DNA from: a virus
Virus record (IMG/VR): IMGVR_UViG_3300003323_000920
DNA length: 64,000 bases
Reading direction: 5' to 3' (one strand)
The notes beneath the pieces are model-generated. The model worked only from the letters and a program-made list of their open reading frames with translations. It made no database searches and was not told the origin of the DNA. A program made the position numbers and the translations under genes. Positions 4,447 to 60,589 of this stretch are shown here, piece after piece (position 1 is the first letter of the stretch; every line of letters starts with the position of its first letter).

Positions 4447-4470
4447 TTTTCCAATTTTTCTATTATTCTA

Positions 4471-4478
4471 CAAATTTA
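4471..4478 (-). promoter_or_regulatory. Bacteroidota-type -7 promoter element (TAAATTTG)
   Basis: caaattta on + strand, 25 nt upstream of the 4446 start. Confidence 0.5.
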
Positions 4479-4479
4479 C

Positions 4480-6809: not shown

Positions 6810-7789
6810 ATTATTTTTTTTTCTTTTAGTAGTTTAATTAATTCCTTCAACCCATAGTTTTTTACCAAATCTGAAGGATCCTTTGATTTTGTTTCTTGAT
6901 AATATTTCTGTGGTACATTCCAGTATTTAAATCCATACTGGTTGTAAAATTTACAACTCCTTACCCCGGCAGCATCGTTATCAAATATGATATACACCTC
7001 CTTGCAAGATTGCAACATCTCTAAATTTTGCTGGTTTATGGCTACTTCACTCTCATTCTGTGTAGCACACACATAGGGGTAAATGGCCGATAATACCAGA
7101 TAATCTTTATGAGATTTCGTCACAATCACCTTCTGTTGTCCAATAACATTCTCCAAACCGTGCATTCGGTCATTGGGTGTGTTATTCCAAATCCATTTCC
7201 ATTTACGCTCAACTAAGGGGCGATAAATCTTCCAATAGGGATCGTAATGGTAGGCGAATTTTAAGCTGGAGTCTTCTATCAGTTTTCCATTTTTCCAAAG
7301 CTCCTTAATAGCATAGACGTGGTTAGCTACAAGTTCTGATTTGGTTATTTCATATTGCTTCCAGTATGCGAGTTCCTCTTGTGTAAAGTCTCTAGATATT
7401 ACCTCAATTACATCGGGTACTTTTTGTTTTAAATTTCCCGGTTTTTTAAAATCAGCAATAATTCTTTGGTATTCTTTATTATTTTTTCTAATACTGAAGT
7501 CATTTTCAATTTTTAATATAGCATCTTTATATGAAATATTATATAGTTGCTGTACAAAATTTATACAATTTCCAGCCTTGGTGGCATCTCCATAATCTTT
7601 ATGAAATAAAGAGCCATCAGAAGCAACCTTAATTCTAAATGATGGATGATCATCCTCCCTAAAAGGAGAACTTATGTTCCTGGATGTAGAAAATTTATTA
7701 CCTAAATAATAGGAATAAATATAATATGGGTCAACTTTATCAAGAATATTCTCAAATTTCTCTGACTTTTTGGGCGTACCCTTAACCAT
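6806..7789 (-). CDS. DNA primase (degenerate Zn-binding domain plus Toprim)
   Basis: SSPFREDDHPSF...DYG...GNCINFVQQL N-domain; IIFDNDAAG Toprim DxD; KDPSD. Confidence 0.85.
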   Translation of the reverse strand: MVKGTPKKSEKFENILDKVDPYYIYSYYLGNKFSTSRNISSPFREDDHPSFRIKVASDGSLFHKDYGDATKAGNCINFVQQLYNISYKDAILKIENDFSIRKNNKEYQRIIADFKKPGNLKQKVPDVIEVISRDFTQEELAYWKQYEITKSELVANHVYAIKELWKNGKLIEDSSLKFAYHYDPYWKIYRPLVERKWKWIWNNTPNDRMHGLENVIGQQKVIVTKSHKDYLVLSAIYPYVCATQNESEVAINQQNLEMLQSCKEVYIIFDNDAAGVRSCKFYNQYGFKYWNVPQKYYQETKSKDPSDLVKNYGLKELIKLLKEKKII

Positions 7790-37066: not shown

Positions 37067-37552
37067 TTATGATTCAATAGTCAAATATTCTATTTCTTTT
37101 TCAGTAAATTCTTGTCCTTCTTTAATATTCGGTGTTAAAATTTCTCCTACTGTTTTGAAACATCCTGTAGTCATTTCAATACATTTATACTTGTGTGTAT
37201 TACACTGAAACTTACTTAGTATTTCAGTAACTACCCCAAAACTACCTTTGATAGGAGAAATTATTTCATCCCCCACCTCTATATCTCTGGAGCAGAGGAA
37301 GAGTTTAACTTTTTTACAGTATGACTTATTTAATCTAAAATCGCCATCTGATTCAGTGACTAGTAGACCAATATTATTTATGTTTTTAACAAAAAAATAA
37401 GAGTTAGCATATAATACCCAATCCCCTTCCTTTATCTCTCCCTCTACAGGAAGATATTTAGCAAAGTAATTTTTCATAATAATAAGTTTTAAAACGAAAA
37501 AACCGGACAATATGCCCGGCCTGAAATTATATACAGAGTTAGTAATTACCAA
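37067..37552 (-). CDS. hypothetical protein, 'YFAKYLPV...KVKLFLCSRDI' family (likely start at 37477)
   Basis: Paralogue of 11058..11609. Confidence 0.7.
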   Translation of the reverse strand: MVITNSVYNFRPGILSGFFVLKLIIMKNYFAKYLPVEGEIKEGDWVLYANSYFFVKNINNIGLLVTESDGDFRLNKSYCKKVKLFLCSRDIEVGDEIISPIKGSFGVVTEILSKFQCNTHKYKCIEMTTGCFKTVGEILTPNIKEGQEFTEKEIEYLTIES

Positions 37553-39712: not shown

Positions 39713-39985
39713 TTAAAATTCTCTCATCATTTCATTGAGACGCTTATAATCTAACCGGGTTCCGGTCCATGCTATCCCATCAGGGGTATTAGTACCTGTT
39801 AAACCCGCCCATTTACAAAAATTCTTATAAACGGCGGCATTCCTATTTTTACAAATACCTCTCATATAATCAACGGCCTGATTATATAAACCTTGATCGT
39901 TATTAATCCATAACGCAACGTTCCAGGTTTGGTAATTTTTCCAACCATTATAGGTAGTATCTTTCTTAACTGTTTGAGTATTCAT
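39713..39985 (-). CDS. conserved phage protein (GWxNYxTWxVxLW family)
   Basis: YNGWKNYQTWNVALWINND. Confidence 0.6.
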   Translation of the reverse strand: MNTQTVKKDTTYNGWKNYQTWNVALWINNDQGLYNQAVDYMRGICKNRNAAVYKNFCKWAGLTGTNTPDGIAWTGTRLDYKRLNEMMREF

Positions 39986-41014
39986 AATAATAAGATTTTA
40001 CATTAATTCTTTAATACCTAAAAGGGAGACAATAGTAATATAATCCTGTTGAGTTAAAGCCGCATTGATAGTAGTAAATTGCCTGTCTGCTTTACCGTCT
40101 AAATAATTCGTTTCTATTAGATAGAATTCTCCATACATCCCAATACAACATTCTAATGTTGTGGGGCTTTTAGTATGACGATAAACCTCAAACAATGGTT
40201 TATCCATTATTAACTCCCATCCTTTGGAAATTAGAAATTCCCTATTTATTGCATTGGGCCGGTTCATCATTGCAATAGATAATGGGGTTGTTGGTGTTTT
40301 CATGATAATATTATTTTTCTTGGCTGTTATACCATTCTATAAACTTAATTACCGCATTATAAACAGCACTTAGTTTATTATTTTTAACTCGAATTTCAAA
40401 ATCCGGAACATTCACAATTTGGGGATGTGAATGTAATAATATAAATCCTGGTCCTATTTCAAACCAATAGGCATTGGTAATTTTACTGTCTGTTAAAGAT
40501 TCAATTTTTTCTACTACTCCCATTATCCAGTCCCATGAATTATGGTATTTCATGCTTTCTACATTCATCTGTTCACAATTATAATTATATTCGCCTGTTT
40601 CATCATTTGGAAGATATAGTAAATTTATACCGTTTGGTCCTTCGGTTACTGAAGGCTTCCAACCCATGAATTTTGCAATAACTATATTATTACTAATAAT
40701 TTGGGCTGTGGCTTCAGATGTTAAATTTTCCATAATAATAGGTTTTTATGCGAAAAGTAAAATAATTTATTTTTCGTTAATGGTTGGTATACGCCACCTT
40801 CCGCTATTATCTTTAATAGCAAGAATTTTCACCACATAACCGTTATTATACCTTATTGATACTTTACTATAACCATGTCGAGTAGCGTACATTTTAGCGC
40901 CCCTTTCCGTCATACTCACATCAATATGTTCACCGTTTTTATTTATCACTCCATAAGTGTGTGCCATAATAATAAGTTTTAAAATGTAAGGACTAAATAT
41001 TACCCCTCCGCATT

Positions 41015-41097
41015 CAATAGTAATATGCTAAACCTATCCTCTTTACAGGGGAACGGCGGGATTTGAACCCCCATATTAGCCCATCATATTACTATTG
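41015..41097 (-). ncRNA. structured element: 13-bp stem enclosing a tRNA T-arm-like hairpin
   Basis: caatagtaatatg (41015-27) / catattactattg (41085-97); minus strand GGGGG-TTCAAAT-CCCGC inside. Confidence 0.35.
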
Positions 41098-41539
41098 CCC
41101 ACCCTTGGGAAGTGAGTGTGATGCGTTAATTTATTTATTCAGGTAATTCTACTATACCCAACTCTTTTAATTTTTCTTTATCCAAAGGATAAAATAAAAT
41201 ATCCTCAATGCGTGCTAATGTTTTAAATTTCCCATCGATAGTAATACCCATTACAGAAGGAATAAAACCGGCTGCTAAATATTCCTTAACCACTTTAAAT
41301 TTCATATTTCTACCAATAAGGCGAAAATATTTATCAGTTTTCATAATCCATTGATTTAAAATATGTTAAATAAATAACAAGGAAATTAACAAAAAATAGA
41401 TGTATTTTTGCACCGTTCAAAGTTACATAATACATTCATTTAATGTTAACCCCTTGTTATTTAATATGATAAATGATTTGTAAAAGTAAATAACCTCATT
41501 ATGCCGTGATCAGCTTTACCCGTTATAGTGATATTCAAG

Positions 41540-41880
41540 TTAAGGGCCTACTATTCCGGTAGGTAACCGGTGAAATGAATACAGCGGCTCCGTGAATGTT
41601 ACCCAAATTATTTACCTTCACAAATCAATGAGATAATCAATTTTTATTTAATACGGATCGTTTAATGTGATCCTTTTCGCGGATGCCAACATTAGGGACA
41701 AGTCAACCTAACGGCGTGTATCTCGCTACCTTTCCTGCTGTTTTATGATGTGGTTCTACCACTTCAGGGCGTACATGTTACATAGGCTCATACGCTTGCC
41801 TTTATTGGTTACTGCCAATTATCAGGAGGAAATAACATTTCCCCATGACGGTTACTATAATTTTCACCGGTTACAACAAT
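41540..41880. ncRNA. candidate large structured ncRNA
   Basis: 13-bp closing stem 41563-75/41862-74 plus five internal hairpins; no credible ORF. Confidence 0.45.
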
Positions 41881-42168
41881 CCACGATCATAGAAATAATA
41901 AGGGGTTTGCTTTTAAATCAGCCTTATCCTTATTTGTGGTAGTTGATTATTCTACCTTTCAACGATTATATCTATAACCTCCAAATTGTTTGACGTTTGT
42001 TAGCTGTACGTGTTGTAAATAATCCTTATTGCTTACCATCTTGTGGGCAGCATTCGTTCGGGAATGTATATCTTCACTACAACTAACAATAAAAGAACTG
42101 CTGCATTAAACACATTTCCTACTACCATATCTATAAAAATGCCCTTAAATTAGAAAGGTAGTTTATCA

Positions 42169-42176
42169 CAAATATA
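42169..42176 (-). promoter_or_regulatory. TATATTTG -7 element
   Basis: caaatata directly adjoining the first 39-nt repeat. Confidence 0.5.
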
Positions 42177-42181
42177 TTGCC

Positions 42182-42291
42182 GGTATCTGTTCCCGTGCTT
42201 AGTAAGGCACGTTATCTGTTGCAGGCATAAAAAGAACTTTGTTTGTCAACTTGGTATCTGTTCCCACACTTAACTAGGTGTGTTATCTGTT
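42182..42291. repeat. two 39-nt hairpin-containing repeats separated by 32 nt
   Basis: ggtatctgttcc-cgtgc-ttagtaag-gcacg-ttatctgtt and ggtatctgttcc-cacac-ttaactag-gtgtg-ttatctgtt. Confidence 0.9.
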
Positions 42292-42306
42292 TCATCGTTG
42301 CCAATA

Positions 42307-42314
42307 CAAATATA
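42307..42314 (-). promoter_or_regulatory. TATATTTG -7 element
   Basis: caaatata, with 24-nt direct repeats upstream. Confidence 0.55.
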
Positions 42315-42316
42315 CA

Positions 42317-42403
42317 CCCATTTTTCTATTTTCCAATTTTTTTATCATATTTTTTTGTCATTGTTTTGTCAGTTATTTTCCCATTTTTCTATTTTCCAAT
42401 TTT
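42317..42403. repeat. 24-nt direct repeat cccatttttctattttccaatttt (two copies)
   Basis: 42317-42340 and 42380-42403. Confidence 0.85.
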
Positions 42404-42624
42404 CCCCAAACAGTACGCAATCCCCTTAAATACCTACATCACTAAGAAAGTATAAACCATAATAAAGAGAAAGAAAGGAGTAAATAGAATATACTTCGGG
42501 AGAATACATTTATTACATTCCCATTTATTCAATTATTCTATGGCCCATTTAATTTGCTACTGTTTATTATTTGTAGTCATTTAATCAGCTTTGACCTGGT
42601 TGTTGTGCTACGAGATGTTCGTAG

Positions 42625-42642
42625 ATACGAATCGATTCGTAT
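42625..42642. repeat. perfect 18-bp palindrome atacgaatcgattcgtat
   Basis: Read directly; abuts the hairpin ctacga-gatgt-tcgtag (42608-24). Confidence 0.9.
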
Positions 42643-43466
42643 GTTATCGCTATATTATTGCGTATTCGCAGTGTATTATTGCACATTTATTGCGTATTTA
42701 TTGATGTTGTATTGTGTTTACGCCCTTTCTCTAACATACATATCACCACACCATAATGGATTATTCTACTGTAATAAATTGATAAAACCCCGTGTTTATT
42801 TGCCATTCATGCATTATTCTATTGTATTGCATTGTCATTGCTTATTATTTATTATTATTTTTTCCTTTTTCCTAATGAATTAATGAATGATTGGACCAGG
42901 AAGTGACCGGGGGGATACCGGCAGGTTGAAATTTATGATGGGGGCTGAAGAATGATGTACACTACAATCCAATACACATAGCGAAATTCCAATTTCAATG
43001 AAAATCAATAATTTAACAAATCAAATTCTGGCCAATTATTTCAATTTTTGGCAAATGTTTGTAAGGATTTTTACAATTTTCCTGACAAAAACAAGATTTT
43101 AAACATAAAAATCAATAATTGCAATAAAAACCTTCTCTGCATGGAGGTCGAAGAGTGGAAAAGCTAACAGATCCTGTAAAATGATGAATATTTTCAGCAA
43201 AATCCCAATAAATGATGAAAATATCCTACATTTAATATGATAGAATACTTTGTTACTTCTGGTAGAAGTATTACTGTCTTTAGATACAAATAATAAGGCC
43301 CCACGTTTCTACGGAGGGGCTTCTTTATTGAATGCTATTTATATAAAGACAAAATACCAGGCGAGAACACCCGGTATCCATTTCTTTCAAAGTAGAAGTT
43401 ATCTCCCCAATATCGAGGATTGAAACAAAGATATTATGTAGTCATATAAATATTGTTAATTAAACG

Positions 43467-43796
43467 TTAACGCTTTTCATCTGGAATTGTATCATACCAT
43501 TTCCAAGCATCATCTAAAACCCACTCCAGCTCCTCGATAGTGGAAAGATTAAATTCTGAAATTCCATCATTAAAAGGCATTGCTACCAATTGGAATATTT
43601 CAGCATTTTTTCCCTCTTCTACCCTGGAGTAATCTTTACTTACATGTTTTACTACGGGGCCGGTTTTATCCATATTTAATACACCAATAAGAGTAACTGG
43701 CGGATCCATTCTCAATATGTACTCAAAATCTGGCTCATAAGGATTTTTAGCCAATAAATAATTACTCATATAATAAAAAAATTTTAATAAAATCAA
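43467..43796 (-). CDS. hypothetical protein (moron-like; likely start MSNYLLAKN)
   Basis: Isolated ORF flanked by terminator-like hairpins. Confidence 0.55.
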   Translation of the reverse strand: MILLKFFYYMSNYLLAKNPYEPDFEYILRMDPPVTLIGVLNMDKTGPVVKHVSKDYSRVEEGKNAEIFQLVAMPFNDGISEFNLSTIEELEWVLDDAWKWYDTIPDEKR

Positions 43797-43846
43797 AGAT
43801 GTTTCAATCTCTCATTTTATTAGGTTAATTATAAGTTAACATAAAT

Positions 43847-43876
43847 AAAAAAACCAGGCAATAATGCCCGGTTCGC
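43847..43876 (-). terminator. intrinsic terminator
   Basis: Minus strand aaccgggc-attatt-gcctggtt-ttttt. Confidence 0.65.
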
Positions 43877-44023
43877 TTATATTTTATTTATCCAATAATT
43901 ATGTGAATGACCCCCTTTAAACAAAGCGGGAATTATTTCGCTCTATCTTAATTGATAATTTGCACAACGTTCTTAGTATAATATTAATGGATATATACGA
44001 TGAAAAGAGTATTGTCGGTTTTT

Positions 44024-44056
44024 AAAAACCACCATAACTTGAAAGAAATGGTGGTA
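44024..44056 (-). terminator. intrinsic terminator (ACCACCAT/ATGGTGGT)
   Basis: 8-bp stem with A5 on the left of the + strand. Confidence 0.65.
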
Positions 44057-44132
44057 TTAGGTGAAAAATTAAATCTTCGGGGAGGGAAAATTGTAGCCTT
44101 CCACTCCTATTGCAATATAACATTTTCCAAAT

Positions 44133-44166
44133 AAAAAACCACCAGTCCTGTCTGGGAACCTGGTGG
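44133..44166 (-). terminator. intrinsic terminator (CCACCAG/CTGGTGG)
   Basis: 7-bp stem with A6 on the left of the + strand. Confidence 0.65.
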
Positions 44167-44247
44167 CCTGTCCTTAATACTTAGAGGGACCATACTTTTC
44201 TAAATATCAAGACCGCAATAATATAGCAATTCTACGATTTGACAAAT

Positions 44248-44715
44248 TTAATATTCCTCATTAGGACTTATTTCCCTAAAAATCAGCATTTTTTTCTCTT
44301 TATGAATAATCTGTTCAATCTTCATTACCTTATTCCCTTTCCTTATTACCCAATAATTTGCCGCTTTTTTTATATTCTCCTCATCAAAGCTCTCAACCAA
44401 TGCCTTTAATACAATACTATCTCCAGGAATAAGACAAGTAGTTACAGAAAGGCCGGTAAACTTGTTAAATGCAACCATAACCTTACATTCAATCTCACTA
44501 TCGTACCATTCCAGTGAATAAGCCTTATCCTGGTACCATCTCTTATTAAAGGTAATACTGGAGTCTCCCCCAAGAATCCGGGCGCTTTCCCTAACCCCTT
44601 CCTCATTTAACCCCAGTAGATATTGACTCCTCACCTGGTTACTTCCCACCAGGAACAAAACAACCATCAATAGCACTTTCATAAAAAGGAATTTACCAAA
44701 TATATCAATTTTCAA
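44248..44715 (-). CDS. exported protein (signal peptide), moron-like
   Basis: MKVLLMVVLFLVGSNQVRSQ Sec signal. Confidence 0.6.
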   Translation of the reverse strand: MKIDIFGKFLFMKVLLMVVLFLVGSNQVRSQYLLGLNEEGVRESARILGGDSSITFNKRWYQDKAYSLEWYDSEIECKVMVAFNKFTGLSVTTCLIPGDSIVLKALVESFDEENIKKAANYWVIRKGNKVMKIEQIIHKEKKMLIFREISPNEEY

Positions 44716-44792
44716 TAATACTGAACCAAAAATTTTTTGAAAAAATTAACTGGTAAATAGAATAATAGAAAATATCATTGGAAATTATTACG

Positions 44793-44800
44793 TAAATTTG
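44793..44800 (+). promoter_or_regulatory. TAAATTTG -7 element driving the plus-strand accessory array
   Basis: Consensus match just upstream of the first plus-strand ORF. Confidence 0.55.
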
Positions 44801-44816
44801 TAGGAAATAATAGGAA

Positions 44817-47800
44817 ATGCAATTAGAAGAATTACCCGAACCGGTGGGATCTTTTATAATTAAAAATTGTGGCGATTCTTTAATGTTAGCTGATGGTGCA
44901 TATTATCACTATTCGCAAGTATGTGTTCTACTTAAAAAGTATGTGGAAGAGAAACTGAAAGATATGATAAAACAACGGGATACTGCATTAGACGAAAGAG
45001 ATAATGCAAGAATCTGGGTCAAGTCCCTTCAAAAAGAACGGAATAAGGCAATTGACCATCTAAAATCGTTAAAAAATTTGATTAGTAAAGATGATGAATG
45101 GTCTGCGTTGAACCTATGCCACTATTTGAACAACGAACTTCAGGAATTTTTTAATTCAATTAAATAAAATGAAAATACCAAGATTTATAAAGAACTATAT
45201 AATGGGGAACTACGCAACGTGTCCCCAATGCGGTGAACCAACTCTTTGTCAAGTACCAAGAGGTGATAGTTGTGACAACTGTGGGTACTGGGTATATTAC
45301 CCTTAATGATTAAATAAAAAATAATATAAAATGGATAACATTAATAATGTGTATAGAACCAATGGATGGTTGATAATAGGTATCATATCACTTAGTATAT
45401 CTTCAATGATCAATGGAACTGACAACATTCAGCACAATAGAAAAATCAGAAAACAGCAACAAACAATAGAACAATTATCCAGGAAAGTTGATTCTTTAAT
45501 AATTCTTCAAAATAAAAAGTAACTGGATATGGATTCTGGAATGTTCAATGGCTTTTTTGAAGGACTGCTTACAATATTCATAGTTGGAGTTTTAACCTTT
45601 GGTACAGTTGGGTTCTTTATAGGTAAAAAGGTTGGTTATAATAAAGCCGTTAAAGAATTTGCCATGGGTAAGATTCAACTTAAAAAAGAAGTAAAAATTG
45701 ATAGCACATATAAACTAATACGAAAATGAATGGAGTTTGGACAAAAGAATGGCAACCGTTTACTGGGTATTATGAAAAACATATGGTTGATATTAAACTA
45801 AAAAATGGGGAAACAGTACTGTGTTGTTGGCCGAACGCAGGATTTATGAATCCTTGTTCTAATGAAGGAAATCCTCAAAACTATGAACACATACCTTATA
45901 AAGAGGTTACTGAGGTAAGATTAACTCATGATAAAATGTGGAATTAAATGAAACAAATGTGGTTTGCCGTTTGTGGAAACTGGGAACGAAATACCTCAAC
46001 TGGAAAGGAAACTAAGCTCCAACAAAAAATATACTCTGATTGCAGCACCCAAGAAGAAGCACTGGGTAAATATGTTCTTGAACATTCAAACGCTATTGAA
46101 GGATACAAATTATATACTTATCAGGTAACGACTTTTACTCCTTCTGAAGTTGAAGATAACATACATTATATCAGATCAATCGACCTGTTAAGGCAAATAG
46201 ATAGTATTCTAAACAGTACTCGAGTAGATATTATGGCAACTAGTCCAATTGCTGAAAATGTCAGAATATTCCTTAATTCTATTGATGCACAAAAATGAAA
46301 ACAATAATAATAAATACAGAAAACACGGAAATAACAATAGACGGTAAGAAATACATTCTTATTCCAGATGATGTCCCCGCTCCCAAAGAATCCGAACTCA
46401 AGACATTTGAAGACTGTTGGAATAAGATCAAACCTAAATGGTTTCTAAATAGTAGCAATAGAATTTGTGAAGCATCTGACCCCACATTTAATAATTTAAC
46501 TAATAATTCAGCTAACCAACTCCCAACAGAAAAATCGGCAAAGCAAATACAAGCAACAATAAAACTTCATGTAGTCAGCCACGCATTACAGGGAGAATAT
46601 GTCCATTACGGGAATCAAAAGAATTATAATTATGTGGTATTGTTGAACAATAAACGTGAACTAGATGTGATGCAAGCGTTCAATGTATACTCTCCGTTTT
46701 CATTTAAAGATGAAGAGACTGCCCGAAAATCAATCGAGATAGCAAAGGATATTTGGTTGGAATATTTTGGAGTAAAATAGATTAGAATGAAAACAAAGCT
46801 CTTAAAAAGGATCCGATCTAAATATCATTATGTGTATCGTGAAGGAATGTGGATAATATATCGACTACCCTCCTTCCCTATTGGATATTGCGAAACAACT
46901 CATAAAGCTCTCGATATTATGGCAGCTCCGATGTTGGCATTTAGTGAACTGACAAGGTGGTATCGGAAAGTATTTCATCTACATGGCACTTGGGGAAAAT
47001 TTCATATTTATTATCAAAGAAAAAGAAAATGACAGGATTAGAAAGAAAGGCATTTGATGAAATTAAATCTATTATAAATAGAATGCAAGTAAGTGTTACA
47101 ATAATGAGAAATTATGTTTCATTTCCTCAAGATAGACAGAAAGAAAAAATACTTTATTATGAAGTAATAGACACCTACGATTCCGAAAAATATAAACTTA
47201 ATAAACTATTAAAAGATTTTGAAGAATGAAACTAATACTAATCGAAAACAAAATCTATAAAGTACCTAAAAAAGTATTTGAAGCACTTCAAAAACTAAGG
47301 GAAGAAGAACAAATAGACTACAAGGCCGGATTGGTCTTGGATGAATACTGTGATTATATTAAAAATGGTGATACATACGGAGTACGGTACTTAGGAGAAG
47401 TAGAATTCCAAAAATCTGAGAAAATTCCATTTTAAATGTGGACCTACGAGAACTTACTAAAAATAGTAAACAAAAGAGAAAAAATGGAAAAGACAAATAA
47501 AAAATGTCCAAAATGTAAAAGTAATAATCTCTTTCTTACTGAAATATGGAATGGACATACGATCTCTTGGGAATGCGTAAATGGTCAACTTAACTTACCT
47601 GAAGGAAATTGTGAAGTGGGATCCCCTGTAAAAGTAGAAAGTAGATGTAAAGAATGTGGGCATTCTTGGACAATTAGAAATGTTACGCAAATCCATCAAA
47701 CACTTATTTAACATGCCAAAAGAAATAACAATAAAACTAACGTTCGACGAAACATGGGATAGTTACGAGGAGGAAAACATTGCTGATGACTTCTATGTGA

Positions 47801-50978: not shown

Positions 50979-51385
50979 TTTTAGCAGTAATAGGATCTAG
51001 GACATTTAAAAATAAAAAAGTCATTTATCAGGCAATAGATGAAATACGTGAGAAGTATAATATTACAGCTATAGTATCCGGTGTTTCCAAAGATGATACC
51101 AATGACACTGGGCCTGATACATATGGGCGAGACTATGCCTTAGATAATAATTTAGAATACATTGGATTCCCTGCGGATTGGGATAATATGGATCCACCCT
51201 GCGTAATTAAGTATACAAAGTTTAACAAACCATATAATGCACTTGCAGGATTTAACCGCAATACAAATATTGCAGAAACCGGATTTTTAGGATATGCTAA
51301 ATGGGATGGTAAAAGTAAAGGAACTAAAGATACAATAGATAAAATGACAGCATTGGGTAAAGAAGTAATAATTGATCTTTATTAA
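50963..51385 (+). CDS. SLOG-superfamily (YspA/DUF2493-like) protein
   Basis: LAVIGSRTF, IVSG, GPDTYG..YA, FPADWD, AGFNRN, WDGKSKGT. Confidence 0.8.
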   Translation: MEEKMILAVIGSRTFKNKKVIYQAIDEIREKYNITAIVSGVSKDDTNDTGPDTYGRDYALDNNLEYIGFPADWDNMDPPCVIKYTKFNKPYNALAGFNRNTNIAETGFLGYAKWDGKSKGTKDTIDKMTALGKEVIIDLY

Positions 51386-51618
51386 TGGAAGAAAAGAAAT
51401 ATTATATCCGCGATATAGAAACTGGATGGCCTACTGAAGTCAGTAAAGAACAATGGGAACTTTATCAGCAACTATTGGAATGCTACCGACCCAAATTATC
51501 TGATAATTTCAAAGGTAAAGTAATAATATTCGGAACAGGTGGTGATTTAGAAGGAGGAGATAACTTTAAACAATTATTTTATAATAATGACTTTAGAACA
51601 GGTAACGATTCAATTTAA
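51385..51618 (+). CDS. small ORF containing a TerL ATPase-domain fragment
   Basis: KVIIFGTGGDLEGGDNFKQLFYN aligns with TerL IPVLVGTGGSFEKGNDAKRFFEN. Confidence 0.6.
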   Translation: MEEKKYYIRDIETGWPTEVSKEQWELYQQLLECYRPKLSDNFKGKVIIFGTGGDLEGGDNFKQLFYNNDFRTGNDSI

Positions 51619-51832
51619 GATAGCAGAGGCTGAGGAGAAGAAAGCTAAGATAAAAATTGATCAAGACAAAATATTAATTGAAAAAATAGAAGCCTTACGT
51701 TACCTTCTGGCAGAAACAGTAGCAGATCCTCAAACAACAGTGGGTTCAGAAACAAGATATAAGCCAGTATTAGATGAAGGGGAAATGGAAATGGTAAAAG
51801 ACAAAATATTCGATTTAATAAAATTGTTATAA
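51587..51832 (+). CDS. hypothetical protein
   Basis: Coupled ORF. Confidence 0.5.
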   Translation: MTLEQVTIQFKIAEAEEKKAKIKIDQDKILIEKIEALRYLLAETVADPQTTVGSETRYKPVLDEGEMEMVKDKIFDLIKLL

Positions 51833-51834
51833 AA

Positions 51835-52107
51835 ATGAAGTTTAGAAAAAAACCAATAATTATTGAGGCTGTTCGGTGGGATGGAACACCGCACGCATGG
51901 AATAATATTATTGATTTGGGATGTTCCCCGACACAAGATGAAACTTGCAAAGAATATGAAATTATTATCCCTACCCTGGAAGATGGTTCATCAAACCAAG
52001 TAAAGCATATCGCTTCCAAAGGGGATTATATTATCAAAGGTATAAAAGGAGAATTTTACCCCTGTAAGCCTGAAATTTTTGAAGAAACTTATGAACTTGT
52101 AATTTAA
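51835..52107 (+). CDS. conserved phage protein (RKKP.xIEA...GDYIIKG..GEFYPCKP family)
   Basis: Recognisable motif set. Confidence 0.75.
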   Translation: MKFRKKPIIIEAVRWDGTPHAWNNIIDLGCSPTQDETCKEYEIIIPTLEDGSSNQVKHIASKGDYIIKGIKGEFYPCKPEIFEETYELVI

Positions 52108-52112
52108 GTAAA

Positions 52113-52379
52113 ATGACAAAGAGAGAATTAATAAACCAATTAGAAAATATTCCTGTATCAGACAATACTCTTATTGTTCTACAAAAAGATGCTGAAGGTA
52201 ATGGGTATAGTCCATTATCAGGATGTGAGAGGGCTATTTACATAGCCGAAGAAACTTGGTGGGGAGAGGTTTATAATCCTGATTGGTCATCAGAAGATGC
52301 TGGCCTAGAGGAAGATGAGTGGGAACAACTTAAAACTGAAAAAGACAAACAATGTATAGTATTATGGCCGGTTCATTAA
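52113..52379 (+). CDS. conserved hypothetical phage protein
   Basis: VLQKDAEGNGYSPL...VLWP. Confidence 0.6.
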   Translation: MTKRELINQLENIPVSDNTLIVLQKDAEGNGYSPLSGCERAIYIAEETWWGEVYNPDWSSEDAGLEEDEWEQLKTEKDKQCIVLWPVH

Positions 52380-52380
52380 T

Positions 52381-52548
52381 ATGTGCAACAAAGTAAAACA
52401 CAAGACTACTTACGGAGCAGCAAAACATGCAGATGCATTACGTAATAAGAAGAAATTCAAAAATAGACAGATAGGTATTTACTGGTGTTCTTCATGTGAA
52501 GATTATCATATCACCACTCATCCAGGTAAAGGATGTATAATAATATGA
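52381..52548 (+). CDS. small Zn-finger-like protein (55 aa, not in ORF track)
   Basis: MCNKVKH...IYWCSSCEDYHITT; stop overlaps the next ATG (ATGA). Confidence 0.55.
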   Translation: MCNKVKHKTTYGAAKHADALRNKKKFKNRQIGIYWCSSCEDYHITTHPGKGCIII

Positions 52549-52883
52549 ACAGAAAGAATGATTGCATTGCCTGCCGATTTAAAAGGGATGGGGTTAAAAC
52601 CAGAAGGGCTTTAGTACATACATGTGGTAAATATATAAAGGAATTGCCGCCGGTAAACCCAAATAAGGAATACTACGTAAGTTGTGATCTGTATGATAAT
52701 ACTTACGGGCCTGGGGCAATACTGGTTATGAGTAAAAGTGAAGATGGTAAAACCTTAAAGGTTGAATACTCTACAAACACCACCGTTAAGGATTTTAAAA
52801 GAGAGGTGTTAAGAATAGCTCAATATTATAATGCAGTACCAATATATGATGAAGTTACAGAGAGATCGATGAATAATAGTTAA
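52533..52883 (+). CDS. Zn-module fused to a TerL nuclease-domain fragment (likely start 52545)
   Basis: ELPPVNPNKEYYVSCDLY...GAILV...EVLRIAQYYNA aligns with TerL residues ~433-517. Confidence 0.65.
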   Translation: MYNNMNRKNDCIACRFKRDGVKTRRALVHTCGKYIKELPPVNPNKEYYVSCDLYDNTYGPGAILVMSKSEDGKTLKVEYSTNTTVKDFKREVLRIAQYYNAVPIYDEVTERSMNNS

Positions 52884-52916
52884 AAGAAAACCCCGCAATT
52901 AGCGGGGTTATTTTAT
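52883..52916. terminator. bidirectional terminator between convergent arrays
   Basis: aaaaccccgc-aatta-gcggggttatttt with A- and T-tracts on both sides. Confidence 0.85.
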
Positions 52917-55129
52917 TCTTAACATTTTACATATCCATCGAAAGTCGTTAATATCTTGACATTGACCCCGATAAACCCGATCTGCAAAATTACTATCCCA
53001 TATCTCCAAAATACTATTCGGTCTATATTCAGCCACTGTATAAGTAGCTTTATAAATCGTTCCATCATTAGCATTAAATATTCCAGAGAAGGTCCAATTT
53101 TCTCCTAGCCCTTTAATGGATTCCCTTACTTGATACCATCCCGGCTCCTTTATCAAATCGTCAATTGAAAACAGGGAAACTCTGAATTGAGCATACCCAT
53201 CATCTAATGCAATAATAGCCTCTTCTAAATCATGAAGATATGTACCATCCTCATCTTTCAATTGGATAACTTCCTTATCAAAAATTTCCACATAACCTCT
53301 AGCCCAATTAACTTCTCCTTCCCAACCTATCCTCAAATCTTCTATATCAGGGTAATAATATTTATCAACTTCCCACGTTTTCATATACTCTTTATAGTAC
53401 TCTTTGTTTACCTCAGTTTTCTTACCTGTCCGCTGATTGCAGATGTAGTATTTATTCTCCATTTTTCCATTTTAAATATGACCGAATAAAAACATACATG
53501 TTAACTCCTCTTTCATTTGTCTTTTCTACAAATGTATCAAGTAACTCCGGAGCATTATCTGATATGTCCTCATATAAGTCATGTAAGAAATAAATGTTAC
53601 GACGTACTTTAGCATTAAATGGAGAACTCCAATACTGGCTTTGATACATATAAGGCTCACCTCCATATCCTGCATCGGGTCCATAATCCAATTCATCGTA
53701 TTCTACAATCCTATACCAATTTTTATAATTGCTATTTTCATTACTAGGGTCTTCCCTTACTCCGAATGTTCTTTCTCCGAATTCTCCACACCCGGCCCAA
53801 TATTCTGTAAATCCTAGTTTATCCAGAACACCGGATGTGATAAGTAATTCTGTAAAAGGGAAAGGATATATAAGTGTTTTATTTTCCATTTAATCTCATT
53901 ATTAATTTTGAAAGATCTGCAAATTCATAATAGTCCATCCAAATACTCACTTCCACACTATCTTCCTCATTATACTTTACAAGATTTATAATGGAAGAAG
54001 TACTATGATGGAAGAAATCCCAAGTTCCCTTCTCCGATTCCGCATTTACCAAATTATGCCAGATTTCATTGTCCATTGTCGATTTCTTTAACTGTTAAAA
54101 CACTGAGAGGTAATTTTCCCATCTCAGTATGGCAAAAAATAATTGATCCTATTATTTCATCAGATAATCCTTCTTTCCTACAAGTATCTACAAATAATTT
54201 TGCCCCATCTTCTCCTGTTTGAGCAATAATATTTCTCTGACCAGGCATTGCGATTTTTTCTTCACTATCACCTATCTCATAGCAATAACCTGGAAGTATT
54301 TTATCTTTTAATTCGTCTTCGCTCATTTCTATTTATTTACAATGGGATCATCACCCTCAATACCCCATTTAGTTACTATTAAGAAACCATCTTTTACATA
54401 GTGAAGAACTATTGGATCGGGTATTTCTTTATATGCAAATACTCCGTTCAATTTATATCCTTCCATATGCATTTCAGATTTCGGAGCACAAATGAAAAAT
54501 GGTATTTTTACTCTATGTCTATTATTATAGATACTAAATTCTCGATTTACACGTTTTTCTTGTTCAACCTCTATATAACTCTCTACATGTGCGTTTTCGC
54601 TTAATGCAGCATTTGGATCTACATACCAACTACTGCTAGAAGAATATATATAATATCTATCATCATCACTCACTTTAAATGTTTCCATTTCCTTTAAGTT
54701 CTTTAAAGGTATGTCACCTTTATACATACCAGCCATACCACATATTAGTCCATACTTTTCGCATATTTGTTTTATTTGATCTAAAAATATGAATTTATAT
54801 TGGGGATATTTCTCTTTGTATTTATTAACAATATTAGCCTTCTTTTTAGCTGCATTATCTATTTCAATCCGTTTCTCCAATTCTCTTACTTGAGCAGTGT
54901 GAGTAAATCCTAATTTTTGCATCAATTGGGCCTTCTCCTTTTTGGTTTCTTCTATCCCTTTCTGACTTAAAATAAATAAAGCCTCATTGAGAGCACGATC
55001 CGCTGCACTATCAAACTCATTGTGAATCTTCTCAATCACATTAGATGTTTTTGCTTCCTGTGGAACAGTTCCGTCTGTTACGTTTTCTACAATTTTATTT
55101 TTTAGTTTTTTTAAGAAGTTAAATTTCAT
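52908..55129 (-). other. hypothetical ORFs (52908-53462, 53452-53889, 53879-54076, 54066-54326, 54329-55129)
   Basis: Co-oriented coupled ORFs; 54329-55129 has a recognisable phage family pattern (ICEKYGL...DPIVL...LIVTKWG). Confidence 0.6.
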
Positions 55130-55829
55130 ATACTTTTTCTATTAAATCAATTTGATTGTTATCATTTAATGTTATTAACCAGGGATTATTTATAGGACTA
55201 TAATCCTCATCGCAAATAGCACCGTTTAAATACGCTGTGCTGCTCCAATCGTGTATACCATATCCGAAATGAATATGACCTGATAAATGCAGCATTGGAG
55301 AAACCTCATTTATTCTTTTTCTTAAATCCTCACACCCCACTCTTTGCCCATTCATTAAATCATCTAATACTCCATGTACTGGCCCATGAGTAACCACAAT
55401 ATCTACTTTATCGGGGATATTTTTCCATACTTCATTAATCTCCTCTCCCCTATCCTTATTAAAGGCCCAAAACTCTTTTCCGAATGATGGGGTAACTGGA
55501 GAACCCCAAATAGTTAATCCTTCAATTTCACAACTACTATTTTCTAAATAATAATTCGTTCCACAATTCTTAAATTCCTCTAACGCCTCAACTAACCATT
55601 CAGGTTTCTCTCCAGTTGGGTTTTTCTCAGGATCAAATGATCTGTCATGATTTCCTGCAATAAAAACTCTATAGGTTGCCAGTTGTCTTTTAAACCATTT
55701 CAAAAATCGCTCAACCTCTCTCCTTTCGCCTACTCCCGAAATATCTCCTCCACATATTAAAAGGTCACAGGGGGGAATTTTTACTTGGTCATGGAAATTA
55801 TGAGTATCTGAAAAATATATTATTCTCAT
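55119..55829 (-). CDS. calcineurin-like metallophosphoesterase
   Basis: SDTH, ICGGD, IAGNHD, VTHGP, GHIH. Confidence 0.92.
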   Translation of the reverse strand: MRIIYFSDTHNFHDQVKIPPCDLLICGGDISGVGERREVERFLKWFKRQLATYRVFIAGNHDRSFDPEKNPTGEKPEWLVEALEEFKNCGTNYYLENSSCEIEGLTIWGSPVTPSFGKEFWAFNKDRGEEINEVWKNIPDKVDIVVTHGPVHGVLDDLMNGQRVGCEDLRKRINEVSPMLHLSGHIHFGYGIHDWSSTAYLNGAICDEDYSPINNPWLITLNDNNQIDLIEKVYEI

Positions 55830-56260
55830 TCGTTCACTTTTTCTTTCAATATTCCTAATTCGACGAATTCATATCTCACAGCTACCCAGTCCACATATGC
55901 TCTTGGATGTATCGGAAATTCCTCATCATAGAATACACCATCTATATTGTAGATTAACGGGCATCCTATTGCCGCATCATCCACATAACGATGAGCATAA
56001 ATTTTTGGAGATTTCGTCCAAATTTTCTGGGAAGGATTTTCATTCACGCCATATAACTCAATACCTCTTTTTTTAAACCAGTTAGCAGCCTCCTCCAATT
56101 TCTCATCTGATCTCATCGTGTTAAGAATGATTTTATGACCATTTGCCTGGATATCAAGTAACACATCCACTGCATCTGGTACATCCTTACCAACTAATGG
56201 GTAATCGTGGGTTACAACGGTCCCATCAAAATCTACAGCTATATAAACCTCCTTATTCAT
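55826..56260 (-). CDS. HAD-superfamily hydrolase-like protein
   Basis: IAVDFDGTVV motif I; ILNTMR; YVDD. Confidence 0.85.
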   Translation of the reverse strand: MNKEVYIAVDFDGTVVTHDYPLVGKDVPDAVDVLLDIQANGHKIILNTMRSDEKLEEAANWFKKRGIELYGVNENPSQKIWTKSPKIYAHRYVDDAAIGCPLIYNIDGVFYDEEFPIHPRAYVDWVAVRYEFVELGILKEKVNE

Positions 56261-56400
56261 TTCAATCTTTCAAAAATTCTAGTGCTGAAAAAATATCTAC
56301 GACTAATACAATCCCCAATAATACACACAACTTATATTCAGTTATTTCCATTGATATTCCTACAACACAGAATAGTGTGTAGGCTATTATTCTTATTATT

Positions 56401-57669
56401 TTATAAAGGGTTTTGTTCATTCATTTCGGTTTTATCTTCTACTGCTTTCATCATTAATTCACCCTCTTTAGCTAGGGGATCATGTGTTACATACAAATGT
56501 CCAAATGGGGATCTAATAGATGTGTAAACATGGGTATCAACACTTGGATCTACATTGTCACCAAAGAATATCCACCTGCCCAATTCTTTTAGATGATTTT
56601 TAATATCCAACTGCAATCTATCCATTTCACTTTCTGTTAATAAAATTTCAATACTACAGTCAGGTCCTAAACCATTTTTGGTTTTGAACTCGTAAATCTT
56701 TTCTTTGACTATTTCCAATAAGGTATTATTCATGACTACTTTTTAATATTTCAAATCGTTTAATTAACTCACAAAACAACATATCTGGGTCTTTATTAAA
56801 ATTCACTGGGATCTCTAAACACCAATCCTTTCCACCAGACATTGCCAACCTCGTAATCCAATCCTTACATTGATCTATTAATTCTTCATCAGTCAAGGTA
56901 CATCCTATGTCTTCACTCATAATAGTAGGTTTGTTTAACCTGGTGAATAATGGGTTCCTTTTCCCCTCTTGCATTTATCCTGGTACCAAAATTGAAATAG
57001 GTTTGGCCTTTCAAATAGGCTTTAAGATGGGCATTTTCAAATTTTAACGCTTCTTTAGGAATGGGATCACCATGTTTGTCTGTAGTTCGTGTATATACTA
57101 TACCTAAAAATCTACGTCTGAGTTTTTGTTCACTTTTACTTTGGGTCATTTACAATATAATATATTTATCACCTGTCTGTCCATTTACTAAATGATGTGC
57201 ATCCCACTCATTTGCTTCTCTTATTCCAATAAAATTTGGAATAATTTTTTCATTAAGATAACCCAATACTTTGGTGTCTAATGGAAATTTTTGAAGAAAT
57301 TCTATTAACTGCCCTACATTTTCTATGTAATTATAGATAGGTGGTGGAGGTGTTGGATTATCCTTCCAATACTGGATCATATCGGGATGATAAGTAGTAC
57401 CAGTTGTAGTTGTACTACTGGAGGTAGGGATCTCACTATTCATTCACATTAACATTTTCTTTTGATTTCTCTTTCTTTTGTCTTTTTTGGTGAGACACTG
57501 GAGTTTTGAGTCCTGAATTATGTAATAAGTTATTTATTAAAGTATTTACACTTTCTGGATCACCAAATGTTCCTAATGAGTCATATACTAAATTCTTTAA
57601 GTCATTAACACTCATTAACACGAATTCCTTGTCATTTGAATTAGGTACCAATTTTCTTTTTATTTTCAT
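56401..57669 (-). other. hypothetical ORFs (56401-56733, 56726-56974, 56913-57149, 57150-57443, 57436-57669)
   Basis: Co-oriented coupled ORFs. Confidence 0.55.
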
Positions 57670-57685
57670 ACTTTGATATTTTATA

Positions 57686-57757
57686 CAAATTTACTTATTA
57701 TTTTCCAAATTTTTTTATTTTTCTATTTTTCTATTTGAAATGTTTTCCCTATATTTG
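57686..57757. promoter_or_regulatory. divergent Bacteroidota-type promoters
   Basis: caaattta (57686-93, minus) and tatatttg (57750-57, plus) with an A/T motif between them. Confidence 0.65.
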
Positions 57758-57764
57758 CATTGTT

Positions 57765-58100
57765 GAAGTAAAATACTCCCCCTACTTATGCCCTGATTTC
57801 AGCTGGAGCAATCCAGTAGGTTGTAAGGATTCCATGAGAGGGCGAGATTACCTGGTGAGAAAGGATAAATATCTGGTTCAGCATGTCCAGTTTTTTGTAT
57901 AAAATACTGGACAATTTTTGCAGGATTTTTATCTGGTCATTCTCATAATTCCAGGTTTAACAGGACAATCCAGAAGTTCCCTACCATAAAACGTGGTAAG
58001 CGAAGTGGAACCATTGTAATAAAACCAGGTAACCCAGCGGTGTTGGGCTAGAATTCAGGAAAGAAACTGCATTCGATTGGTAAAAGGCGCTGGAAAGAAA
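57765..58100 (+). ncRNA. candidate ~330-nt structured ncRNA or leader
   Basis: Starts just after a promoter; 9-bp long-range stem, GCAA tetraloop, possible pseudoknot, at least four more hairpins; no ORF of 60 aa or more. Confidence 0.5.
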
Positions 58101-58254
58101 TGTTAAATCTTCTTCTTTATTTTCAAATTTTTGCTCCCTTTTAACCCTACGTGTATCTACTAAGATTCACTAGTCTCAAATTAAAGGTCTAACAAACCAC
58201 CATCCCAGATGAAGGGATTGTATTTTAAAGGGGTGCGATTTTTAATTCAAGCAT

Positions 58255-58638
58255 ATGGAAGCGAAATATAACCCTGAAACTACAGACAGTAGCGATAAAA
58301 AATTGCAGATCAAACTTTTGGAGTACCAGAAGCAAGATGAAGAGATAATTGAACATTATCGAAGAAAAATGGGTGTGTATTTACCCAAACTTTCTACCAT
58401 TGAAACTTATAATGGCCTCATAGAATACGTACAGGAAATGTATTTGAATGGGATGATAGTTGGGGATGAATTTGTGATGAAGCCTTCTGAGGAACAAAGG
58501 AACAAATTAATAGATTCCACCTATTTATCCTTATATGGAGATTTAAAAATAGGAGAACCAACTGGATTTTATAACCATTATCAAGAGGGTGGATTTGTAA
58601 TTGAAACATTTTTTGGTGTTAAAATAATTATAAAATGA
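58255..58638 (+). CDS. hypothetical protein
   Basis: First plus-strand ORF after the structured region. Confidence 0.55.
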   Translation: MEAKYNPETTDSSDKKLQIKLLEYQKQDEEIIEHYRRKMGVYLPKLSTIETYNGLIEYVQEMYLNGMIVGDEFVMKPSEEQRNKLIDSTYLSLYGDLKIGEPTGFYNHYQEGGFVIETFFGVKIIIK

Positions 58639-58717
58639 AAGGATTCATAAAATGGTTCCTTGATGGTTGGAATGAAATAGATCCTTTTCAAGAAGCTGTA
58701 TTAGCAGATCTCAATGA

Positions 58718-59005
58718 ATGGATGAAATCAAAACAAAAAAAAATAAAAAAATGAGTGACATTAAAATTCCCACAGTAGGAAGACAAATACATTATTTCCC
58801 ATGTGAACATGACTTTCATTGTTCATACAATGGAGCTGAAGTATTACCAGCAACAGTCGTACAGGTATTTAGTACAAGGCTTAATCTTGCAGTTACTTGC
58901 ATGAATGTAGATGGACCAGTAGTACTCAGATTTTCTGTACCTCATAAAAGTGAAGCGGATGCTGGAGGGATAATGTCATATTGGGATTGGCCGGAAATGA
59001 AATAA
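58718..59005 (+). CDS. conserved phage protein (likely start 58751)
   Basis: PTVGRQIHY...LPATVVQV...NLAV...W.WP pattern. Confidence 0.65.
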   Translation: MDEIKTKKNKKMSDIKIPTVGRQIHYFPCEHDFHCSYNGAEVLPATVVQVFSTRLNLAVTCMNVDGPVVLRFSVPHKSEADAGGIMSYWDWPEMK

Positions 59006-59050
59006 GCGAATTAAAATATTTTTTATATATTTTCATCATATTTCTATAAC

Positions 59051-59653
59051 ATGTTGAAAATAGGTATAACAGGTGGTATTGGTTCCGGCAAAAGCACGGT
59101 GGCAAAAATATTTGAGCTGCTGGGTATTCCCGTATATTATGCGGATGCGGCTGCCAAAGACATTATGAACCGTGACCCGGAACTGAAGGCCCAGGTGCAG
59201 CAGAATTTTGGCGCGGATATGTATGACAGTAACGGGCAGCTGGACCGTAAACGCCTTAGCAACATTATTTTCAACCACCAGGAAAAACTACTACTGCTGA
59301 ATTCCCTGGTGCACCCGGCTACCATCCGCGATTCTGAGCAATGGGCTCTGAGGCAAAAATCACCCTATCTACTGAAAGAAGCCGCCCTGCTGTTTGAATC
59401 AGAATCTTTTCGTTACTTGGATAAGATCATCGGCGTATCTGCCCCGCAGCCTTTGCGCATCTTACGTACCATGCAGCGGGATAAGGTTAGCCACAATGAA
59501 GTTTTTGCCCGTATGCATAAACAAATGGATGAAACCATTAAAATGCGTTTATGCGATTACGTGATCTATAACGATGAACAGCAGATGGTAATACCGCAGG
59601 TGCTGAGATTACATCAAGAATTAAACTTAATGAGCCGGAACGCCTCTACATAA
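59051..59653 (+). CDS. coaE: dephospho-CoA kinase
   Basis: KIGITGGIGSGKST, ADAAAK, LDRKRL, LNSLVHP, EAALLFE, R..QM, DYVIYND; GC about 47-53% vs about 30% in flanks. Confidence 0.95.
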   Translation: MLKIGITGGIGSGKSTVAKIFELLGIPVYYADAAAKDIMNRDPELKAQVQQNFGADMYDSNGQLDRKRLSNIIFNHQEKLLLLNSLVHPATIRDSEQWALRQKSPYLLKEAALLFESESFRYLDKIIGVSAPQPLRILRTMQRDKVSHNEVFARMHKQMDETIKMRLCDYVIYNDEQQMVIPQVLRLHQELNLMSRNAST

Positions 59654-59719
59654 AGCGCACCAATTGATCTGATCAACAGATATCACCTAAAAGACGTTTT
59701 AGGAGTCGGACATATTAGT

Positions 59720-59752
59720 AACCAGGTATTTTTATACTCTGGTTTTTTCTTT
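59720..59752 (+). terminator. intrinsic terminator after coaE
   Basis: accag-gtat-tttt-atac-t-ctggt followed by T-tract. Confidence 0.65.
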
Positions 59753-59871
59753 TTTAGCATTATATAGCATTCCGTAGTTGTATATATCTTCTGTACGCTT
59801 GGTAACTATTTTGATTATATTTAACTTTACAGTGTGATTGAGTATAATTGATTTAGTTAGAAAAACCAACA

Positions 59872-60267
59872 GTGAAAGAGAAAATTTACGCACAAAAAAT
59901 AAAAAAGGAATGTAATTCCCCAGTTGAGTTAGCCCAAAAATACTACTCCACGCTTTTAGTACTAAATAACATATCTCTTTCTCAGCGTGAAATTGAATTA
60001 ATTTCATTCACAGCAGTACGTGGTACAATTTCTTCATCATCTGCAAAAGATGAATTTATCCGGCAATTTGGATCATCAGTGGACACTATAAACAACATGA
60101 TTTCTAAATTGCGTAAAAAAAGTCTTTTGATTAAACAAAATGGAAAGACAAAAATACATCCCTCAATAGCTCTGGATTTTAATCATAAGACATTTGTAAT
60201 TCAATTAAAGCTAAATATAAAACCGAAAGATGGACTTAGTGAAGGAATGGTCAAAGAAGATAATTAA
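59872..60267 (+). CDS. winged-helix DNA-binding-like protein
   Basis: LSQREIELI...SVDTINNMISKLRKKSLL. Confidence 0.5.
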   Translation: MKEKIYAQKIKKECNSPVELAQKYYSTLLVLNNISLSQREIELISFTAVRGTISSSSAKDEFIRQFGSSVDTINNMISKLRKKSLLIKQNGKTKIHPSIALDFNHKTFVIQLKLNIKPKDGLSEGMVKEDN

Positions 60268-60589
60268 GCAAACTTGTGAAATATTAAATCAACCAGAAGA
60301 TATTGTTACCGCTGTTCACCAGGATCAATGGAAAAGGGCCAAAAGTTCTGCAAAGGAATGTAATCAAATTGAATTTTCTGGATTAGGTAGGTTTACAACG
60401 AAAGCCAAGAAAATAGATAAGCAACTTATTAAATATACCAATCTTTTCAATGCTTGGATACAATGTAAGAAAACTGAAACCGATTTGGGCAAATTACATG
60501 CCCTAGATACAAAGTTGACTCAGATGGAGGCTCAGATAGAAAATTTGGAAAAAAGAATCAAAAGGAGGGAAAATGAAAATAAATGTTAA
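60230..60589 (+). CDS. HU/IHF-like DNA-binding protein
   Basis: IEFSGLGRFTTK beta-arm motif; position upstream of TerL as in crAss-like phages. Confidence 0.55.
   Translation: MDLVKEWSKKIIKQTCEILNQPEDIVTAVHQDQWKRAKSSAKECNQIEFSGLGRFTTKAKKIDKQLIKYTNLFNAWIQCKKTETDLGKLHALDTKLTQMEAQIENLEKRIKRRENENKC

Follow-up and report, generated by a model that had tools for sequence, protein, structure and literature searches.

What kind of signal is formed by two short, hairpin-bearing repeats at the head of a phage early region, and would it act as DNA or as RNA? The repeats lie in the window, that is, the whole 64-kb stretch of DNA analysed here, which is part of an 82,287-nt contig from an uncultured phage (33% G+C). 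The family A DNA polymerase and the large terminase of the window had their closest counterparts in crAss-like phages and Maribacter phage Panino. Genes run leftward from ~ 41.3 kb, in a ~ 40-kb array of small early genes that the repeats head, and rightward from 44.8 kb. From 41436 to ~ 43460 no convincing ORFs were found under the standard code or two alternative codes. Recoding was considered as the cause of this ORF-free stretch and rejected, TAG=Q and code 4 having opened no convincing frames.

The repeated units and their covariation

The earlier note on this DNA had described two 39-nt repeats, 32 nt apart, with identical 21-nt flanks and fully compensated stems. All of this was confirmed, and the units and the linker were located as follows.

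42182..42220, minus strand: unit 1, an additional tandem copy found in the window only, with the same flanks as unit 2 and a stem that differs from it at three compensated pairs
42221..42252, minus strand: linker of 32 nt, homologous to the leader after the single unit in the related phages L116 and L095 (ACAAACAAAGTTCTTT-type)
42253..42291, minus strand: unit 2, the probable ancestral copy, ortholog of the single unit in the related phages L116, L095 and G001

The unit is composed of a 12-nt 5′ flank, a 5-bp stem around an 8-nt loop TTAnnnAG, and a 9-nt 3′ flank. On the minus strand, unit 2 reads AACAGAUAA, one arm of the 5-bp stem, the loop CUnnnUAA, the other arm, and GGAACAGAUACC. The two units differ at nine of their 39 positions, and all nine fall within the 18 central positions of stem and loop, with none in the 21 flank positions (hypergeometric P = 2.3e-4 for this split). 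The stems, CGTGC/GCACG in unit 1 and CACAC/GTGTG in unit 2, differ at three pairs, and 3/3 of these changes are compensated. Allowing up to three mismatches, the full unit pattern was present at these two sites only in the 64 kb and gave no matches in 100 shuffles; covariance model R1, run on the window, returned no copies beyond units 1 and 2. The octamer TATCTGTT had been reported to occur four times, which holds for the units themselves, but the whole window contains seven copies.

The unit was found once in each of three related uncultured phages, namely L116 (part of a 125.8-kb JGI contig), L095 (a 14-kb Logan contig) and G001, also handled as L106 (an 82.5-kb IMG/VR contig). The route to them was through homologues of the neighbouring proteins and one relaxed pattern. 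Relaxed pattern scans of the viral collection yielded G001 only, and homologues of the genes adjoining the unit were too few to yield more relatives. With model R1, L095 and G001 yielded nothing beyond their single units, and L108-L111, which are more distantly related, and the early region of phage phi14:2 yielded no copy. The first exact-pattern viral scan produced 81 chance matches, including a coding-sequence look-alike, the exact-pattern metagenome scan produced 10 unrelated matches, and the exact 21-base degenerate pattern had none in a collection with one genome per prokaryote species. Near and distant BLAST searches of the region against deposited phages gave no match. Rfam covariance models (E ≤ 1) were compared with 40500-45500 of the window and 4400-7700 of L116, and none covered a unit; apart from a tRNA in L116, the search returned just two weak matches, both at other places in the window. 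As judged from these searches, the motif is new and so far limited to a narrow clade of four uncultured phages.

The stems of the relatives covary with those of the window. Three stem versions occur among the five units (the two given above and TGTAC/GTACA), pairing holds in 100% of cells, and both sides have changed at four of the five pairs, although these counts are small and the sequences not independent, because the set consists of only five units from four related phages. Across the same five units, the loop ends are fixed, as are 19 of the 21 flank positions. With every stem version paired and the flanks fixed, the earlier claim that the structure is under selection was upheld. Each flank octamer has one free position, and the two positions vary independently. 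A concerted A-to-T change in both octamers was considered, and it occurs in L095 only; the position was taken as simply free because the change was not upheld by G001 (T/G) or L116 (T/A).

Unit 1 and the units of G001 and L116 are also closed by a candidate outer helix of 4-5 bp. Its geometry is identical in the three cases (5′ arm, 3 nt, unit, 3′ arm), and its sequences are unrelated (UGCC/GGCA, GAUCC/GGAUC and CGGU/ACUG). The helix pairs in 64% of cells, compared with 20-44% in slid-column controls; it is shifted in unit 2 and absent in L095. It appears to covary, less consistently than the inner stem. The candidate arms in the window are:

42224..42227, minus strand: UGCC, candidate 5′ arm of the outer helix of unit 1, with its partner at 42178-42181
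42297..42300, minus strand: CAAC, candidate 5′ arm of the outer helix of unit 2, with its partner at 42247-42250, in a register shifted relative to the other units

The predicted minus-strand fold consists of the outer helix, an internal loop of ~ 12 × 12 nt, the 5-bp helix and the 8-nt loop, an element of ~ 60 nt with the outer helix included. In the minus-strand reading, AACAGAnA is present on both strands of the internal loop. The G.U pair in the outer helix of L116 exists on the minus strand only. The inner hairpin is weak on this strand (− 5.7 and − 7.2 kcal/mol; z-scores − 0.5 and − 2.1). On the plus strand, a T-A pair and an invariant T.G pair extend the stem to 7 bp and leave a 4-nt loop (− 8.9 and − 7.2 kcal/mol), and the hairpins formed by the units as DNA are weak (− 3.1 to − 4.9 kcal/mol). 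A partner complementary to the flank octamer was sought within the same transcript, and none was found there. A loop-to-leader pseudoknot was inspected by eye and dropped, the loop variants giving it no support.

Promoter, leader and downstream element

Upstream of unit 2, in the minus-strand sense, we observed a promoter of the Bacteroidota type, for which the consensus was taken from PMC7366714. Its parts, and a further box beyond unit 1, are:

42307..42314, minus strand: − 7 box TATATTTG of the Bacteroidota sigma-A type promoter, preceding unit 2 by 15 nt
42334..42337, minus strand: − 33-like element ATTG (consensus TTTG), 19 nt upstream of the − 7 box
42341..42371, minus strand: three TGACAAA/TGATAAA repeats that precede the promoter and are shared by all four phages
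42169..42176, minus strand: second TATATTTG box, 5 nt past unit 1, without a − 33 element; the L116 leader reads TATATGTG

On the equivalent strand, L116 carries a full-consensus TTTG-N21-TATATTTG with the unit 18 nt past the − 7 box. The window has the near-consensus ATTG-N19-TATATTTG followed by 15 nt to unit 2, and both L095 and G001 have a weaker promoter, TTAG-N20-TACCTTAG, before the unit. The unit is always 15-20 nt downstream of the − 7 box in the window minus-strand sense. The start of the transcript was estimated at ~ 42298-42301 on the minus strand; given the promoter spacing, the unit would therefore be at ~ + 8 to + 60 of the leftward transcript. Bare − 7 boxes number 93 in the T-rich window and have no coding-strand bias.

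The units had been described as lying between two TATATTTG promoter elements. The boxes do lie on either side of the units, but both are on the minus strand and are not two promoters facing the units; read in that sense, one box precedes the units and the other follows them. The upstream box is conserved as a promoter element, with the full-consensus promoter of L116 at the same place. The second is not conserved and lacks a − 33 element; it is unlikely to be a promoter and seems to have arisen as a side effect when unit 1 was inserted. In the alignment of the four leaders, unit 1 in turn looks like an extra copy inserted into the leader of the window only. The genes adjoining the unit in the relatives all run in the leftward (window minus) sense, and a small gene starts 26 nt after the unit in L116 and 43 nt after it in L095.

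Two further observations concern promoter regions. Upstream of the leftward promoter there is a perfect 24-nt direct repeat (42317-42340 and 42380-42403, 63 nt apart), the first copy of which overlaps the − 33 region. L095 has at 453-560 a second TGACAAA-repeat promoter module, with a − 7 box TATCTTTG at 501-508, followed by a degenerate unit-like leader with ACAGAAACC and a 3-bp hairpin.

Downstream of the units, the same transcript would include a second conserved structure, located as follows.

41690..41990 of the window, minus strand modestly favoured: structured non-coding element, present in all four phages, with many compensated pairs
6838-7050 of L116: the same structured element
3136-3425 of L095: the same structured element
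1150-1555 of L106: the same structured element

The element is 70-80% identical between phages and has no Rfam match; in G001 it begins 43 nt past the unit. The fold predicted from the four sequences has − 26.6 kcal/mol on the minus strand versus − 22.5 kcal/mol on the plus strand, and one pair of positions gives G-C or G.U on the minus strand but A.C on the plus strand. A candidate 13-bp closing stem (41563-75 / 41862-74) was not conserved in the relatives. We also considered a 46-aa ORF within the element, which is common to L095 and G001; because it is absent from the window, the element was taken as non-coding.

The reverse strand of the L095 (3499-3506) and L106 (1431-1438) loci, which is opposed to the early genes, carries a full-consensus Bacteroidota promoter, TTTG-N20-TATCTTTG. 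Transcription from it would run across the structured element towards the unit and may give an antisense RNA; the window and L116 lack this promoter at the corresponding position. The long non-coding leader of L116 includes a tRNA gene (7519-7592, plus strand) that is co-directional with the early genes; there is none in the window. The more distant relative L108 has a G+C-rich non-coding stretch of ~ 950 nt (547-1492) heading its early genes, not alignable with the element described here. Leaders of this long, non-coding kind may be a general feature of the phage group, phi14:2 (2904-4602) being another case. For phi14:2, a crAss-like phage, abundant long non-coding RNAs from the intergenic early region have been described (bioRxiv 10.1101/2020.03.07.982082).

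Elsewhere in the neighbourhood, two small leftward genes (43467-43770 and 44248-44682, both on the minus strand) were located inside the region that had been supposed to be empty. The product of 44248-44682 has a signal-peptide-like N-terminus, and a full-consensus promoter (box 44697-44704) is found 15 nt before the start codon. Clear terminators are present at ~ 43851-43874 and 44134-44170. Approximately eight short repeats of the TTATTGC type at 42640-42850 are iteron-like and could belong to an origin; this stretch is ~ 70% identical to L116 4747-5009. The early mini-genes share a sequence of the TAAAACTTATTATTATG type running into the start codon, for example at 40965-40981, 39983-39999 and 37475-37491 and at several sites in L106 and L116; six matches with up to three mismatches were counted versus 1.4 expected.

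Possible roles of the unit

A conserved motif with covarying stems thus occupies a fixed position after a promoter, and on sequence grounds it probably functions as a regulatory RNA structure. Our preferred reading is that the units form a motif at the 5′ end of the leader RNA and that either a protein or the polymerase binds it, as with nut, put or TAR. We give this reading a probability of about 0.4, which makes it tentative. It fits best because the flank sequence is fixed on both sides of a covarying hairpin, an outer helix covaries as well, and the position is promoter-proximal. The strand of the tRNA gene in L116, the direction of the neighbouring genes and the better minus-strand fold of the downstream element were counted in favour of a minus-strand leader, as were the early non-coding RNAs of phi14:2. 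Counted against it were the small set of units, the weak minus-strand hairpin, the outer helix that is missing in L095 and shifted in unit 2, the opposite-strand promoter in L095 and G001, and the frequency of bare − 7 boxes in the window.

We infer that the unit acts as RNA, that it does so on the minus strand, and that it works by binding a factor. A leftward transcript would start at the host-type Bacteroidota promoter 15-20 nt upstream of the unit and would continue through the conserved, structured and non-coding stretch to the array of small early genes and the genes for replication. The outer helix and the inner hairpin would enclose the internal loop to form a two-fold pseudo-symmetric platform, selected for sequence as well as shape. 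Soon after initiation, a protein or the transcribing polymerase could recognise this platform, and the recognition would set the fate of the transcript, by read-through of downstream stops, by stability or by processing. In the window, with its two tandem copies, the differing stems would prevent mispairing between the copies.

Lambda nut, HK022 put and HIV TAR act on transcript fate from promoter-proximal RNA. Lambda nut (boxA and boxB) and HK022 put, and by analogy TAR, are likewise promoter-proximal leader elements. The likeness of the unit to nut and put extends to the leader of a long phage operon, to a conserved single-stranded sequence or box next to a small covarying hairpin, and to one or two copies per genome. 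It does not extend to sequence or model similarity (no Rfam match). Moreover, the conserved sequence here flanks the hairpin on both sides, the internal loop is symmetric, the hairpin loop has 8 nt and the host belongs to the Bacteroidota. We know of no N-like factor.

The same hairpins could instead be plus-strand intrinsic terminators, tandem in the window, that end a rightward non-coding or antisense transcript before it reaches the leftward promoter. The 7-bp plus-strand hairpin with its 4-nt loop and the T-rich tail after it loosely recall Rho-independent terminators, a simple terminator scan lists both units, and the opposite-strand promoter of L095 and G001 aims at the unit. Nevertheless, we regard termination as unlikely. 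That promoter is missing from the window and L116, and three opposite-direction genes intervene in L116. The “U-tract” contains an invariant C and an invariant G, and the whole 5′ flank, which is not T-rich, is invariant too; a terminator needs neither, and an outer helix enclosing the tail does not fit termination. The stems are weak and directly follow a promoter of the other strand, whereas the clear terminators elsewhere in the region have G+C-rich stems and runs of 6-7 T. As double-stranded DNA, the unit could be an operator or an origin iteron, with two TnTCTGTT octamers as direct-repeat half-sites over the transcript start. Nearly invariant octamers 29 bp apart, at ~ + 10 to + 50, would suit a roadblock repressor, and the surrounding 2 kb are rich in other repeats. 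A duplex, however, gives no reason for the inner helix to be compensated or for the outer helix to covary, and the two copies within one genome have different palindromes, which makes a DNA site distinctly unlikely in our view. Initiator iterons with cruciforms, as suggested earlier, were not supported, because a double-strand binding site has no need of a covarying helix.

Two other explanations depend on the RNA polymerase that the phage packages. The relevant protein is encoded in the structural arm of G001:

51354-60449 of G001 (2354-11449 of L114), reverse strand: 3031-aa protein, matched by tblastn to crAss001

Residues 98-794 of this protein, in its N-terminal part, match the crAss001 “putative RNA polymerase subunit”, and we therefore take the group to be crAss-like, with a virion polymerase of the two-barrel type. 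The protein had no PHROG, Pfam or PDB sequence match, and a simple pattern search of it for a DxDxD motif found none. The T7-type polymerase family PF00940 was not found in the 82.5 kb of G001, in a search of uncertain power that also matched 0/14 control genomes, and no single-subunit RNA polymerase family was matched among the scanned larger ORFs of the window.

If the units were hairpin promoters for this virion polymerase, as suggested earlier, extruded from supercoiled or single-stranded DNA, they would be counterparts of the early promoters of N4. They share with those a small hairpin within the 5-7 bp range, fixed neighbouring bases, tandem copies, a place at the head of the early genes and a packaged polymerase, and here the stem also covaries. 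Furthermore, in the phi14:2 study the enzyme was given denatured (single-stranded) DNA in the assay, and no motif for its early promoters emerged (bioRxiv 10.1101/2020.03.07.982082). We nevertheless consider this role improbable. N4 promoters have 3-nt loops and serve an N4/T7-like single-subunit enzyme, in contrast to the 8-nt (or 4-nt) loop on a 5-bp stem (7 bp with T.G) and the crAss-type polymerase found here. A host-type promoter is directly upstream of the unit, which itself is present in only one or two copies per genome and in none before the rightward small genes. Genes upstream of the unit are co-directional in L095 and G001, the motif is absent from the phi14:2 early region and L108-L111, and the DNA hairpins are weak. 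A pause or termination signal of the T7 class II type, with TATCTGTT combined with a hairpin, was suggested by the octamer, which is letter for letter the published class II pause site of T7 RNA polymerase (PMC9157156). The octamer stands on both sides of the hairpin and in tandem, as in the engineered hybrid terminators that join a hairpin and the pause site (PMC9157156). However, the ATCTGTT core is present in the window with no T7-like polymerase found in the phage group, the virion enzyme being crAss-type; the first A of the signal is unconserved (T or G in the relatives), and the signal would act on rightward transcription only, opposite to the local genes. A pause site of this kind is very improbable, and the match is probably a coincidence. 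Equally remote is an anti-defence decoy, in which the units would mimic CRISPR repeats, form a mini-array or serve as a pseudo-antitoxin RNA. The resemblance to CRISPR repeats, RNA anti-CRISPRs and ToxI-type RNAs is limited to the 39/32/39-nt geometry and the presence of a hairpin in the repeat. The relatives have a single unit, the repeats are not near-identical (9/39 positions differ, including those in the stems), and the 32-nt linker is not a CRISPR-type spacer because it is homologous to the leader of L116 and L095, where a spacer would be expected to vary between relatives. No host counterpart was found either, as the degenerate pattern had no match in the prokaryote collection, and the viral and metagenome scans gave chance or unrelated matches plus G001. 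The earlier ideas of a CRISPR-like geometry and of a mimic of a host CRISPR or toxin–antitoxin locus did not hold, and on these comparisons a CRISPR or ToxI mimic is essentially excluded.

Meaning for crAss-like phages

What the unit would teach depends on its role. As a plain stabiliser or terminator, it would be ordinary. Should it prove to be a signal for the virion polymerase, it would be the first defined start signal for that enzyme, with the natural stem variants as ready controls. As a leader RNA motif, the reading that we prefer, the unit is probably a new example of a cis-acting structured leader element, and, if it binds a factor, the internal loop, symmetric and with its sequence repeated on each strand, would represent an uncommon design for RNA recognition. 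The control of transcription in crAss-like phages is largely unknown, and the unit may offer a practical handle on their long operons and on the unusual transcription machinery of the Bacteroidota.
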